A DNA stretch of 63,996 nt, counting the filler, from an uncultured Methanosarcinales archaeon (GTDB taxonomy: Archaea > Nanobdellota > Nanobdellia > Woesearchaeales > JAGLXL01): the NCBI GenBank assembly GCA_964472345.1. It is 7 parts of 7 records of this genome, joined end to end, with 100 filler letters (N's around TTAATTAATTAA, not from the genome) between each part and the next. Parts side by side here need not be neighbours in the genome. Positions count along the whole stretch, not along the records: positions 1 to 10,253 come from CAYYLB010000046.1; 6 more parts are not named here. One strand, given 5' to 3'. Below, one piece after another: positions 3,086 to 43,930 of this stretch (its first letter is position 1; every line of letters starts with the position of its first letter). The notes beneath the pieces were generated by a model that had not been told where the DNA came from, did not search any database, and was given only the letters and a program-made list of their open reading frames with translations. The translations under genes and the position numbers were made by a program.

Positions 3086-4483
3086 ATGCACGCGCAGGCG
3101 ATCTCCATTCCGAAAGCAAAAATAGGCCTTGAGATCCATGTGTATGTCGCGGTGGAAAACCGGCAGAAGCTCTTCTGCACCTGCCGCATCGATCCTGAAG
3201 CGGCACCGAACACGACCGTCTGCCCCATCTGCACCGGCCAGCCCGGGGCGAAGCCGATGCTGCCCAACGCCGATGCTGTCAAAAAGATCCTCAAGGCGGC
3301 GCTGATGCTCAACTGCACAACAAACAACGAGCTGGTCTGGCAGCGCAAGCATTATGACTACCCGGACCTGCCGAAAGGCTACCAGAGCACGATGTCGGGG
3401 AGCTATGCGGTGCCGGTCGGGGAGCAAGGGCATTTCCTCGGCATCGGAATCCGGGAGTGCCATCTTGAGGAAGATCCTGCGCGGTGGGATCCGGTGACGG
3501 GGTGCGTCGATTACAACCGCTCCGGCTATCCGCTGATCGAGATCGTGACAGAGCCGGACTTTACCGATGCATCACAGGTCCGCGAGTGGCTCAGGAAGCT
3601 GATGACGACGCTCAGCTACGTGAAGGCTGCGGAGCGCGGGATGGGCATCAAGTGCGACGTGAATGTGTCCATCGCCCCCGCTTTTATGAGGGTGGAGGTC
3701 AAGAATGTCAACTCGTTCACCTCGATCATCGCTACCATTGAGCACGAAATCGTTCGCCAGCAGCGCGAGCCGGTCAGGGAGCAGCACACACGCGCGTGGT
3801 CAGAGGCAGAGCAGGCAACGAAATTCATGCGCTCGAAGGAGCAGGCGCTGGACTACATGTTCATCCCCGACCCTGACCTGCCGGTTGTCGAGGTGACGGA
3901 GAAGATGCTGGCTGCGATCCGGGAAGAACTGCCGGAGAAGCCCGAGCAGAAGCTGAAAAAACTGCTGAAGGCGGGCGTGGAGCAGACGACGGCTGAGGTG
4001 ATTGCGACTGACCTGCCGCTGTCTGAGCTGTTTGAGCAGCTGTCGCGGAGCGTGAAGCCTGCGCTTGCGGGGAACTGGATCCGGAAGGAGCTGCTGCGGG
4101 TGATGAACGACCGCGATGCGCCGTTTGACGAGCTGGGGCTGCGGGAGGAGCATATCACAGAGCTGCTGGAGCTGCTTGAGGCCGGGAGCGTGACGGAGCA
4201 GGTAGGACGCGAGCTGCTGCGGAAGCTGCTGGAGAAGCCGTTCTCGCCGAAGCAGCTGGTGAAGAAGGAAGGGCTGGAAGCGATCGGCGGGGCGGCAGAG
4301 CTGGAGAGGCTGTGCAAGGAAACGCTTGCGAAAAACCCCGGGCCGGCTGCGGATTACCGCGCGGGAAAAGAGGAGGCGCTGAACTTTCTCGTCGGGCAGG
4401 TCATGAAAGCGACGAAAGGAAAGGCGAAGGCGCAGGAGGTGAAGGGGATCTTCGGGAGGCTTTTGAAGAGCACGGCGGGATGA
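3086..4483 (+). CDS. gatB: Asp-tRNA(Asn)/Glu-tRNA(Gln) amidotransferase subunit B
   Basis: IGLEIH, KLFC, RKHYDYPDLPKGYQ, HLEED, DYNRSGYPLIEIVTEPD, RVEVKN, FLVGQVMK. Confidence 0.96.
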   Translation: MHAQAISIPKAKIGLEIHVYVAVENRQKLFCTCRIDPEAAPNTTVCPICTGQPGAKPMLPNADAVKKILKAALMLNCTTNNELVWQRKHYDYPDLPKGYQSTMSGSYAVPVGEQGHFLGIGIRECHLEEDPARWDPVTGCVDYNRSGYPLIEIVTEPDFTDASQVREWLRKLMTTLSYVKAAERGMGIKCDVNVSIAPAFMRVEVKNVNSFTSIIATIEHEIVRQQREPVREQHTRAWSEAEQATKFMRSKEQALDYMFIPDPDLPVVEVTEKMLAAIREELPEKPEQKLKKLLKAGVEQTTAEVIATDLPLSELFEQLSRSVKPALAGNWIRKELLRVMNDRDAPFDELGLREEHITELLELLEAGSVTEQVGRELLRKLLEKPFSPKQLVKKEGLEAIGGAAELERLCKETLAKNPGPAADYRAGKEEALNFLVGQVMKATKGKAKAQEVKGIFGRLLKSTAG

Positions 4484-4531
4484 TCCTGCGCTGCCGCTTC
4501 CCATTCCTAATTGGCCGCTGCTTTTGGCAGC

Positions 4532-5140
4532 CTAGAGCATCTGTTCTATCTCCTTTCCGAATTCTTCTGCCCGTTCCAGGGACGTTTTTGCTTTGGCAGC
4601 CTTTATCTCCTCCGTTGATTCGTACTGGAATACGGAGCGTTTCTGCCTTTCAAACTCAAAATTCTGCAGAAGATTGTCGGATAATGCCAGCGCTTCCCCG
4701 CCCGCCAACTCATATTCCTCAATGAGGTGGTCTTTCAGCCTGTTCCTGACAAAGACGATGAGCGCATCAGCGGTTATGGCGAATCTCGTTATTTATCAAA
4801 CTTTTCCGAGATTCGCTAGAATAGCAAATTGCGGGTAAAAAGTTTGAAAATTTCCGCAATTTGCTATTACCTTATGCGCGACTTTCGAGCCGATCTTGTA
4901 ACCGATGCTGTACAGCAGGGCATTTGCGAGGTAAAACATGGAATAGTAGCTTATGACGACCACCCAGAGGTTCGAGAGCTTCTCATCCAGGAGCCTCCTC
5001 GCCGCCAGCAACGACTCACGGTGGTTTCTGAGATAGGTTTCAAAGACGATCTTCCTGAACTGCTCCTTCCTGATCAGCCCTTCGGACAGGTACACGCTGA
5101 CGCTCTTTCCTGCCTCTTTTACCCGCTCATTGCTTAACAT
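4532..5140 (-). pseudogene. HEPN domain gene interrupted by a 90-bp insertion
   Basis: N-half ends AHKV; frame resumes TADALIVFVRN...RSVFQY...EQML-stop at 4532 after removing 4777-4869. Confidence 0.88.
4777..4866. mobile_element. 90-bp double-hairpin element, TTA target duplication
   Basis: Two adjacent hairpins; TTA at 4774-4776 and 4867-4869; precise removal restores the HEPN frame. Confidence 0.85.
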
Positions 5141-5708
5141 CGCCCACCATCCGGTAAAATATCTCCGTCCCGTAAAGGATTACATTGTTTTTAACAATCT
5201 CATTCCCCACATTGAACTCCCTGCTTTTGAGCATTGCGAGAAAGTCTCCTGATGTGAATTCCTGCATATGAACATTAATAGGGGTTATGCCCAAAAGTGC
5301 CTGTGCCTCCTTCGTGACCTCCGGATCGTCCGTGATGAGGCAGAGGTCTATGTCCGAGCCTTTTTGGCTGGTTTTGTTCGCATACGAACCGAAAAGGAGC
5401 AGGCAGTAAAAAGGCCTTTTCACTTCTTTGATCCTTTTGTCGACGAGCCTGATGTCTTTGTTCCTGAACAGTTCCTGCTTCCGCATCTCCTCGATTTCAA
5501 CGATTTTGTTGGTATAAGTGTAATGAAACGTGCATACGTTGGCGTTTCCGTGCTTCGTCATCGTTATTAACCCTTCTTTCTCTAATTTCATCACCTCCTC
5601 ATAGGCAATCCTATAGTTCATCTTTAATGCTTCCGCTGCCTTTTTTATCGTAAATGTCCGGCCCTTGTTCTCCACAAACAGCCTGAGCACTCTGAGGTTG
5701 TTGTTCAT
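5127..5708 (-). CDS. wHTH plus MNT antitoxin-like protein
   Basis: wHTH N-terminus; FGSYANKTSQKGSDIDL (GSx10DxD). Confidence 0.88.
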   Translation of the reverse strand: MNNNLRVLRLFVENKGRTFTIKKAAEALKMNYRIAYEEVMKLEKEGLITMTKHGNANVCTFHYTYTNKIVEIEEMRKQELFRNKDIRLVDKRIKEVKRPFYCLLLFGSYANKTSQKGSDIDLCLITDDPEVTKEAQALLGITPINVHMQEFTSGDFLAMLKSREFNVGNEIVKNNVILYGTEIFYRMVGDVKQ

Positions 5709-20287: not shown

Positions 20288-20463
20288 GGGGTTGGTGCGA
20301 AATGTGCACTGCCCTTCCCTTGCGAGCGACGCCGGCTGCTGCTTGCAGGGCACGCTGGAACCGAAATCCTTCCGGGAAATCAGACAGGGGACGGCGGGAA
20401 ACGTTTGGGATTTCGGCGGAGTGAGCTGGCAGTGCCGCGACAGCGAATGACGCACCAACCCCC
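20288..20463. mobile_element. MITE-like element with GGGGTTGGTGCG termini
   Basis: 12-bp inverted termini; imperfect flanks ATGGAGGA/ATGGATGG; related ends at 25129-25214 and 49710-49721. Confidence 0.7.
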
Positions 20464-20556: not shown

Positions 20557-20785
20557 GGCTCTGTAGAAAAGTGGCCGTAGCCGTCAGCTGGAGCAGCACC
20601 GGAGCCGCATGGCGGAGGTCTGCTCGACGGCTGACGCCAAGCAAATCGGGGATTTGCGGGCACCAAAAGCGAAGCTTTTGCGTGCGCCGGGGGATGCGCC
20701 CGAGCGAGGCGAGCGGTGTGCCAGCAATTGCGGATTGCTCTGCACCCCATCCGGGGTGGCGCGTAGGCCACTTTTCTACGAAGCC
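20557..20785. mobile_element. MITE, IS1595-family-like
   Basis: 20-bp TIR GGCTCTGTAGAAAAGTGGCC (2 mismatches); perfect 8-bp TSD GGGGAAGC at 20549-20556 and 20786-20793. Confidence 0.9.
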
Positions 20786-28745: not shown

Positions 28746-28857
28746 GCGGGGATGGCGAAGCGGCTAACGCAACCGCCTGCAGTCTGCTCAGGTGAGGCCC
28801 AAGGGCCTACGGCACGGTGAGAGCGGTCATTCGGGGGTTCGAGTCCCTCTCCCCGCT
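28746..28857 (+). tRNA. tRNA-Cys(GCA) with a 39-nt canonical intron
   Basis: GCGGGGA/TCCCCGC acceptor, ACCGC/GCGGT anticodon stem, U discriminator. Confidence 0.9.
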
Positions 28858-30575: not shown

Positions 30576-31147
30576 AGCTAAGACTCAAAAAGAAATTTGA
30601 AAAAATAAAATATTATTCTTTAGTTAAAAAAATCTAGAAATTTATGCCAGAGTTCTTGATCGTCTTAAAGATAAAAAATAATCAAAAGTGATAAGCTCAT
30701 TTCTGACCTTGGCGAATATTTCTGTAAGGAATTGTTTGGCCTCCAACTTGCCAAGAATTCGAATCAAAAAGGATTTGATGCATTAAAAATGAAACGAAGT
30801 TTGAGGTAAAGACGCGAAATGGCACAATCTTCCCTTTTATAGTAAATCGCAATGATACCTGAACTTTTTCGTTGCGATTTACTATACTAGCAAATCTCCC
30901 AAATGTTAAATCATGAAGGAGATTTGCTATTAGAGCTGATATGACTAAAAAAACTTTTGACTATGCCCTGCTTGTTCGTGTTGATAATAGCTATTTACCC
31001 ACAGATATCTTTCAGATCCCATGGAGAATAATAAAAAAAAATAAGAAGAAAAATAACCGCTTTTACTTGAACAAAAAACTCATTGAAAAATACCATCTGA
31101 AAAAATTTCACATCTATGCCCATCCACGCTTTTCAGAATATGATTAA
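30572..31147 (+). pseudogene. frameshifted PD-(D/E)xK-like nuclease gene (DUF6998-like) with a 90-bp insertion
   Basis: Fragments ISDLGEYFCKELFGL, NQKGFDA, FEVKTR, FDYALLV in shifting frames. Confidence 0.6.
30840..30929. mobile_element. 90-bp double-hairpin element, TTA target duplication
   Basis: TAGTAAATCGCAA/TTGCGATTTACTA plus TAGCAAATCTCC/GGAGATTTGCTA; TTA at 30837-30839 and 30930-30932. Confidence 0.85.
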
Positions 31148-43295: not shown

Positions 43296-43398
43296 CCCAG
43301 GGGCTACGGCGGCGGATTATTTAAGCTTTAAGGAAAAGAAATGGCCCACCGCACTGTAGCAGAACGCACAAACGTTCCATTATTCATGCGTTCTGCTC

Positions 43399-43602: not shown

Positions 43603-43658
43603 CTCAAACAGCTTGATGGATGGATAGGGCGGTGTGCTTAAAAAGGTTTCTGGGAAAA

Positions 43659-43930
43659 GGCGTTATTGAAAAGTTCCCGTTCGCTATGCGGAAAAGTGCG
43701 CTTTTCCTGAGCTCGTACCGAGTCCGAGCCGCTCGACCTGATTGTCCTTCGGACTCGAGTCGAGCTGGAGCCTGGCAGGCGTCCCGCTTACGCCGGCACG
43801 GAGAACGTGCAGCGTCCTCCTGAGCCTCGTACCGAGTCCGAGGCGCACACTGGCCGTCCGCAGAAGTGCGCTTCTGGGACCCAAATCACTGCGGTGATTT
43901 TAGGGCATTGGCGAACTTTTCAATAACGCC
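43659..43930. mobile_element. MITE, IS1595-family-like
   Basis: Perfect 18-bp TIR GGCGTTATTGAAAAGTTC; perfect 8-bp TSD TGGGAAAA (43651-43658, 43931-43938). Confidence 0.92.

Follow-up and report, generated by a model that had tools for sequence, protein, structure and literature searches.

A palindromic double-hairpin element with a 3-nt target duplication interrupts a HEPN-like gene in a Woesearchaeales archaeon

What has split a defense-type, HEPN-like gene in an uncultured groundwater archaeon of the order Woesearchaeales, and how did it get there? The DNA analyzed here, called the window, is a stretch of 63,996 nt from one genome assembly (GCA_964472345.1), and in it the frame of the HEPN-like gene is broken by a 90-nt double hairpin at positions 4777-4866. 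A first-pass annotation of the window took this insert for a structure-recognized mobile element, and saw in its exact removal a possible switch for the gene. Little is known of what moves DNA in the tiny genomes of DPANN archaea; the family to which the insert belongs offers a clean, testable case, with a sharp target rule, a directly seen empty site, invasion of genes, and a pairing constraint amid sequence drift. Our results indicate that the element is probably a nonautonomous MITE (miniature inverted-repeat transposable element) of Woesearchaeota-type DPANN archaea, mobilized in trans by an enzyme with a 3-nt staggered cut. Such an enzyme would cut its target at TNA with a 3-nt stagger and join the TAG...CTA ends of the element to the cut target, and repair of the staggered cut would duplicate the TNA triplet; by this route the 4777-4866 copy would have landed inside the HEPN gene, inactivating it.

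The insertion itself can be read directly from the locus. Positions 4774-4869 consist of TTA, the 90-nt element, and TTA. When 4774-4866 (93 nt) are taken out, an unbroken minus-strand frame of 172 aa results (...HKVTADALIVF...); with the insert in place, the frame runs into stop codons. Uninterrupted homologs in relatives are exactly 172 aa long, are 70% and 73% identical, and read HKVT(A/S)DAL across the junction. Since these homologs are continuous there, the 90 nt plus one extra TNA are an insertion, and this insertion has inactivated the HEPN-like gene. The split gene and its restoration by exact removal, as first annotated, thus stand, and contigs from other studies carry the restored form.

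Those contigs came from a comparison of four public sequencing runs with positions 4300-5400. In runs X5 and X6, which belong to two other studies, one contig each joins 4773 to 4867: exactly 93 nt are skipped, three letters fit both sides of the joint, and the shorter side spans 109 letters. Over 4665-4773 and 4867-5315, the contig from X6 differs in 2 + 17 letters of 558 (∼3%), which marks its source as a related strain that has diverged slightly. In runs X1 and X4, the closest to the window, contigs break at the element, and no element-free bridging contig is listed (contigs drop rare variants); summed depth over the element is 108 to 295, compared with about 5 to 12 alongside, as repeats should give. 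Hence, an unoccupied allele of the HEPN-like locus exists; this does not demonstrate excision, and the allele is most simply explained as the unoccupied ancestral site.

Alignment of the modules revealed that both hairpins represent a single ∼43-nt module, inverted relative to each other. The module is a palindrome: TAG, an arm of 12 to 13 bp, a loop with a conserved T..GAAC(A/T)TTT, the complementary arm, and CTA. Because the element is two inverted modules joined by 2 to 3 nt, it has terminal inverted repeats of ∼42 to 45 bp. In the copy at 4777-4866, module B is an A-type module in inverted orientation; module A has one G.T in its stem, at the second pair, and belongs to a sublineage in which CAAAC replaces the GAAC loop motif. 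Another full copy in the window has the opposite orientation and comprises a 45-nt module (30840-30884), a TAC spacer, and a 42-nt module (30888-30929). The window strings together contigs of a single assembly, and the two copies thus lie on different contigs (C46 and C50). We read the same 90-bp layout with its TTA duplication at 4774-4869 and around 30840-30929, found the stems and loops quoted for both copies to be correct as written, and reproduced the reported reverse-complement alignment of the two, which spans 90 columns with 0 gaps and 60 of 90 positions identical; 13 differences fall among 50 stem positions and 17 among 40 loop and spacer positions. Folded as single-stranded DNA (ssDNA), both strands of both window copies form two hairpins at −22.7 to −24.3 kcal/mol (z-scores, −6.3 to −8.6), and none of 200 shuffles folds equally well.

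The source assembly (1.26 Mb in 120 contigs, 57% G+C, rated 100% complete) contains 12 full copies and one disrupted copy, located by BLAST, a hairpin scan, and a dimer covariance model (R1). These form two main sublineages, the first of which splits again. Three copies, on contigs C1, C43, and C55, are identical over all 90 nt and are flanked by TAA, TTA, and TTA, respectively. Identical copies with different triplets mean that the target, not the element, supplies the flanking triplet, and three 100% identical copies at different sites argue that the family was recently active in this lineage. Copies other than the one in the HEPN-like gene lie at unrelated places, most without a long frame across the site. 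In the disrupted copy (C67:2710-2890, locus L011), the second module has in its loop another double-hairpin element, of a different kind and ∼88 nt long. Lone modules whose flanks match occur on C39 and C23 in the source genome and at two loci elsewhere (L154 and L119); we do not count them as one-hairpin mobility because a deletion between direct TAG..AAAT words gives the same picture.

The family extends well beyond this genome. A covariance model built from the copies, a check suggested at first pass, recovered further ones: 12 of 100 relatives, spread over 11 families of the order, have matches to the dimer model, and the module model (R2) matches 14 of 151 genomes of the order, the source genome counted. 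We also scanned public collections for an exact 25-letter motif, taking up to 2 kb of flank on each side. The motif lies at 62 loci in one-genome-per-species contigs, all of them archaeal metagenome-assembled genome (MAG) records, and at 74 loci in metagenome contigs (136 in total); the scan of viral contigs gave 0 loci. Titles of the 62-locus records are mostly Woesearchaeota or Nanoarchae-, with some given as uncultured Methanosarcinales and one as Aenigmatarchaeota. One variant measures 139 nt and has a palindromic core of 52 nt; in others, 50 to 100 nt of small hairpins are inserted in the loop right after GAAC, and still others reach ∼316 nt.

Flanks across the family define a strict target rule. 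Among 59 dimers with distinct flanks (60 rows of our script minus one offset duplicate of the C50 copy), all 59 have the identical 3-nt TNA on both sides: TTA in 34, TAA in 23, and TCA in 2. With each dimer oriented short module first, TAA is found in 45, TTA in 11, and TGA in 2, an orientation bias (TAA 45 versus TTA 11; binomial P = 5e-6). The preceding base is T in only 1 of 58 and the following base is A in 5 of 58, so that the preferred target is [not T]-TAA-[not A]. The strict ends that the script demanded left out some source-genome copies, the one in the HEPN-like gene included; by eye, these follow the same target rule. Given the identical copies with different TNA, the target duplication is real and not encoded by the element. 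We rejected a stop codon as the target, which might have explained the TAA/TTA bias: long frames that stop at the duplication number 5 in 58 cases, versus 7 and 2 in the other two frames. Spacers in the family are GAA (27), GTA (14), AA (9), and others (8). Loop polarity is convergent in 58 of the 59 script-found dimers; exceptions to it are one loop-flipped copy in genome G057 and two tandem cases among the metagenome loci.

Covariation of the stems is convincing through the wider sample of modules, not through the source genome alone. For the 12 source-genome copies (10 distinct rows, 25 pairs), 97.6% of cells are paired and 6 pairs have changed on both sides; neither this percentage nor the covariation score is reached by any of 500 shuffles, but the count of double-changed pairs is reached by 108 of them, and sliding the partner by 1 to 3 columns leaves 24 to 48% paired. 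Those six double changes separate just three sublineages and so represent few events. In an alignment of 47 distinct modules, 97.9% of cells are paired and 7 of 12 pairs are double-changed, with 77 such cells and 1 one-sided cell; again, 0 of 500 shuffles reach the pairing or the covariation score, and a slid partner is 24 to 46% paired. Raising the sample to 109 distinct modules (from 145 matches) gives 97.9% paired, 8 of 12 pairs double-changed, and 181 such cells, in an alignment that leans toward structure because it was fitted to the model. The idea that compensatory changes keep the stems paired is thus borne out.

What is being kept appears to be a property of DNA. The 1,307 cells of the 109-module alignment include 18 wobble pairs and 27 other mismatches. 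Wobble is no commoner than other mismatches, and G.T is A.C on the opposite strand, which points to a constraint on DNA symmetry or pairing and not on an RNA helix. The RNA alternative raised in the first-pass annotation accordingly gains nothing from the pair statistics, and an Rfam scan of the whole window found no family at the element, only two tRNAs reaching the gathering score. The two modules of one element differ in their arms, yet within each module the arms stay complementary; such arm-to-arm complementarity in each module would not be needed by one protein recognizing the ends in double-stranded form. Because the arms stay complementary while the sequence drifts, intrastrand DNA pairing, as a single-strand hairpin or a cruciform, seems to matter. 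If the element is a MITE inserted by a staggered cut, the chance that its mobilizing enzyme needs the folded or symmetric form is about even. Alternatively, template switching in replication may copy one arm onto the other; arm correction of this kind has been described for quasipalindromes. The family thus poses the question of whether a staggered-cut transposase needs folded ends or short palindromes homogenize themselves.

In most respects, the element behaves as a MITE. It is short, noncoding, and present in many copies at unrelated sites, and it has terminal inverted repeats, a duplication of fixed length, and an empty site. That it is mobile and nonautonomous, as first proposed, agrees with the many copies with different flanks, the 3-nt duplication, and the unoccupied site in related strains. 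The first-pass annotation had added that it does not behave as an ordinary decaying MITE: this is true of the stems, but the inverted repeats, duplication, size, and copy number fit the MITE definition. Staggered insertion into a 3-nt TNA is a trait of IS5 (IS1031/ISL2) and PIF/Harbinger DDE transposases and of Tourist MITEs, and the 3-bp TNA/TWA duplication of the IS5/PIF-Harbinger group is what we observed. Like those elements, this one is short, A+T-rich, noncoding, and multicopy, with inverted repeats, a TNA duplication that is mostly TAA/TTA, and stable hairpin folding. It differs from them in having TAG at the start of its ends, terminal repeats that are each perfectly palindromic with covarying arms, and a DPANN archaeon as its host, and in that no parent element or matching transposase was found. 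With each end a self-complementary module under a pairing constraint, it is structurally unusual.

Several results weigh against assigning the element to a MITE family moved by such a transposase. A plain double-stranded terminal-repeat mechanism leaves unaccounted for why the inner arm tracks the outer arm. We found no autonomous element with the same ends in the loci and genomes searched. Among the 136 motif loci and their flanks, 109 close into a module within 41 to 44 nt and 9 within 91 to 102 nt; the other 18 are decayed or truncated or carry cargo of up to ∼316 nt, with no partner at kilobase distance. Module matches in five genomes include no autonomous copy, the source genome has no lone ends carrying the terminal word, and an all-against-all BLAST of it recovered other short repeat families and no long repeat with these ends. 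Lone module matches in three genomes (G057, G023, and G083), considered as ends of an autonomous element, are in fact trimers, solitary modules, or members of a second dimer family, and a repeat beside two G057 contig ends, considered as a longer element, is merely another hairpin. A 286-aa open reading frame comes after one of the truncated copies (L141); it belongs to no Pfam family and went unmatched in 101 genomes, in a search run without a positive control.

The search for the enzyme by profile was likewise negative. No IS5/PIF-Harbinger transposase with common ends was found in the source genome: PF01609, PF13359, and PF13586, which cover the co-occurring IS5/PIF transposase that had been suggested as a check, are unmatched there, as are three more DDE transposase families, PF13358, PF00665, and PF12762, and the TnpB family PF07282 has one match below the cut-off (17.1 bits; E = 0.0068). 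Multicopy insertion sequences are commonly lost from MAG assemblies, so the absence of the enzyme from assemblies is weak evidence. DDE_Tnp_1 is found in 12 of 12 carriers versus 24 of 88 noncarriers (Fisher P = 1.2e-6, computed on related genomes that are not independent samples). Y1_Tnp is also enriched (10 of 12 versus 25 of 88), and the association of DDE genes with the element, real as it is, is thus not specific; TnpB is above the cut-off in 0 of 12 carriers versus 7 of 88 noncarriers. The insertion sequence transposases of carrier genomes fall into at least six unrelated clusters. Their DDE elements, so far as these could be delimited, were rejected as the source because the ends are unrelated and the duplications, where flanks are readable, measure 6 to 9 bp (not 3); an IS630-like element of G023, which also has other ends, was rejected as well.

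We consider it unlikely, at something like one chance among several, that folded DNA (hairpin or cruciform) is read by an enzyme never encoded between the ends that nevertheless integrates with a 3-nt stagger. We know of no described transposition system that joins structure-recognized ends, such as those of REP/REPIN (repetitive extragenic palindromic sequence and its paired form) or attC, with a true target duplication. If this were so, few self-contained mobile units would be smaller than a 42- to 45-nt hairpin or its inverted doublet, which would be spreading across DPANN families.

Somewhat less probable is a mechanism closer still to that of REPINs, in which folded ssDNA hairpins would be the substrate of a structure-reading enzyme (HUH/RAYT-like or other; RAYT, REP-associated tyrosine transposase) encoded by a single-copy gene elsewhere in the genome. 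The architecture invites the comparison: palindromic modules, a fixed terminal TAG, strictly paired arms, and an overwhelming preponderance of inverted doublets with a very short spacer, like REP dimers or REPINs. The lack of an autonomous copy at any of the 136 loci, the enrichment of Y1_Tnp in carriers, and the fact that the sole transposase-like gene found in the source genome is a Y1 HUH gene agree with it. REP doublets, or REPINs, with their RAYT enzymes are indeed inverted pairs of palindromic modules (Bertels and Rainey 2011; Di Nocera et al. 2013). They share with our element small palindromes, a fixed terminal tag, mostly inverted pairs with rarer singles, and the lack of an autonomous copy with the same ends; REPs have a tag at one end only (GTAG or CGTC), are usually G+C-rich, lie beside a RAYT gene, and have not been described as making a target duplication.

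By comparison, the element studied here makes a true 3-nt duplication that it does not itself encode (identical copies carry TAA or TTA), and there is no RAYT. It is this duplication that tells against the REP/attC-like logic proposed at first pass; to our knowledge, no target duplication has been described for IS200/IS605 or REP/RAYT systems. The suggested link to an HUH enzyme fared no better: the only HUH gene found in the source genome (Y1; C75:857-1390) has no TnpB, carries unrelated G+C-rich hairpins of its own at its flanks, and has no module nearby. Together with its counterpart in G086, it scores as an ordinary IS200-type TnpA (NCBIfam, 98.9 and 82.5 bits; cut-off, 55), and both miss the cut-off of the RAYT model (29.7 and 25.3 bits; cut-off, 80). 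Nor does the element fit a palindrome-associated transposable element (PATE) derived from IS200/IS605. In PATEs, insertion depends on TnpA, takes place 3′ of a fixed word of four or five nucleotides, and leaves no duplication, and the hairpins are in direct orientation on one strand; the likeness is confined to miniature size and hairpin ends, whereas here the modules are inverted, a duplication is made, and the central flank base varies and matches on both sides. There is no fixed target word and no lack of duplication in our family, and none of the 12 carriers has TnpB above the cut-off.

Mobility without any transposase, through host repair or replication or an RNA copy as proposed for mitochondrial hairpin elements, strikes us as quite improbable. 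Double-hairpin elements are reportedly present in Allomyces mitochondria. In yeast mitochondria, GC42 is a 42-nt hairpin with a 2-nt duplication (AG) and no known enzyme (Wu and Hao 2015). Mitochondrial elements of this kind resemble ours as mobile units of 40 to 80 nt with one or two hairpins, constrained structure, and a tiny duplication, and differ in being G+C-rich and organellar, with another target and duplication length; the likeness is one of format. The GC42-like format and our failure to find a mobilizing gene here would suit such a mechanism; the constant 3-nt TNA duplication in 59 of 59 dimers and the sharply conserved ends would not, because they are the product expected of a site-specific staggered enzymatic cut. 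Nor did we see a poly-A tail or a variable-length duplication of the reverse-transcription kind, and wobble is not favored, contrary to selection at the RNA level. Least credible of all, and by a long way improbable, is a regulatory device (an on/off switch of HEPN by precise excision, or a structured RNA): insert plus one duplication copy does make a multiple of three, an allele lacking exactly the element does exist, and the C55 copy does lie in frame and stop-free within an open reading frame, but the empty allele is found only in the ∼3% diverged strain of other studies and not in contigs of X1 and X4, the other copies sit at unrelated places mostly without a spanning long frame, the element has no Rfam match, and the genome has two further paralogs of the HEPN-like gene.

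As to precedent for a MITE of this kind, a census of prokaryotic MITEs counts 105 per Mb in a Woesearchaea genome, one of the densest; this family is not described in the accessible portion of its text, and its supplementary MITE lists, outside our coverage, may hold copies. The accessible part of a 2026 survey of archaeal insertion sequences contains nothing on the element, and our searches of the literature on MITEs or transposable elements in DPANN/Woesearchae- and on hairpin or compensatory MITEs gave no description of it. Coordinates of the features in the window are given in Table 1.

Table 1. Parts of the element, its other copies, and the genes around it, in window coordinates
Feature	Position	Strand	Remarks
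Left target duplication, TTA	4774..4776	.	3 letters fit either side of joint 4773->4867
Module A, 42-nt hairpin	4777..4818	+	12-bp stem, 18-nt loop; module model R2, 51.4 bits
Spacer GAA (3 nt) between modules A and B	4819..4821	.	
Module B, 45-nt hairpin	4822..4866	-	13-bp stem, 19-nt loop; R2, 55.3 bits, minus strand
Right target duplication, TTA	4867..4869	.	
Second full copy, other sublineage, TTA/TTA flanks	30837..30932	-	Dimer model R1, 106 bits
Degenerate lone module, third stem type (TAGCAGAACGCA), no clean duplication visible	43357..43398	-	R2, E = 5.6e-5
N-terminal part (91 aa) of interrupted HEPN-like gene	4868..5140	-	Weak HEPN match, E = 0.0088, below Pfam cut-off, half protein
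C-terminal part of interrupted HEPN-like gene, stop codon included	4532..4773	-	No Pfam match of its own
Nucleotidyltransferase gene, upstream of HEPN-like gene	5127..5708	-	NTP_transf_2, E = 3.9e-07; Polbeta, E = 4.7e-07

The gene upstream of the interrupted one is of the type that is the customary partner of a HEPN gene. Elsewhere in the window, a tRNA match (28746-28857) spans 112 nt, which leaves room for an intron. At least three other repeat families occur at 20291-20462, 20557-20785, and 43629-43858 (on C49 and C51), with further copies elsewhere in the genome; they measure about 175, 230, and 215 bp and have ordinary terminal inverted repeats and G+C-rich interiors. The source genome is thus rich in MITE-like repeats, yet almost no transposase genes were found there.

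Two of its copies deserve mention for their surroundings. The C55:1842-1931 copy (L036:1501-1590) lies inside an ATG-started open frame of 376 aa with stop-free read-through, and it would add 31 codons near the N terminus if that ATG is used. The ∼88-nt element nested in L011 has a TA or TAT duplication, and one of its arms contains a 12-nt word from the end of the G023 IS630-like element. Of five carriers, G023 alone has an IS630-type DDE_3 gene. In the sample of 101 genomes, 36 have solo Y1 genes, whereas only 7 have TnpB above the cut-off.

Cargo of 50 to 100 nt consists of two small hairpins, placed either directly past GAAC in a module loop or in the central spacer (L112, L164, L123, L149, L170, L113, L195, L214, and L092-L096); part of it, a TGAGCATGCTCA-like palindrome, is found again in different genomes. 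The module and dimer models also flag contig breaks and gene disruptions in Woesearchaeota MAGs. The second dimer family, in G023 (L080-L083), has different stems and a length of ∼95 nt; TA/TA flanks each of its four copies, which makes the length of the duplication unreadable.

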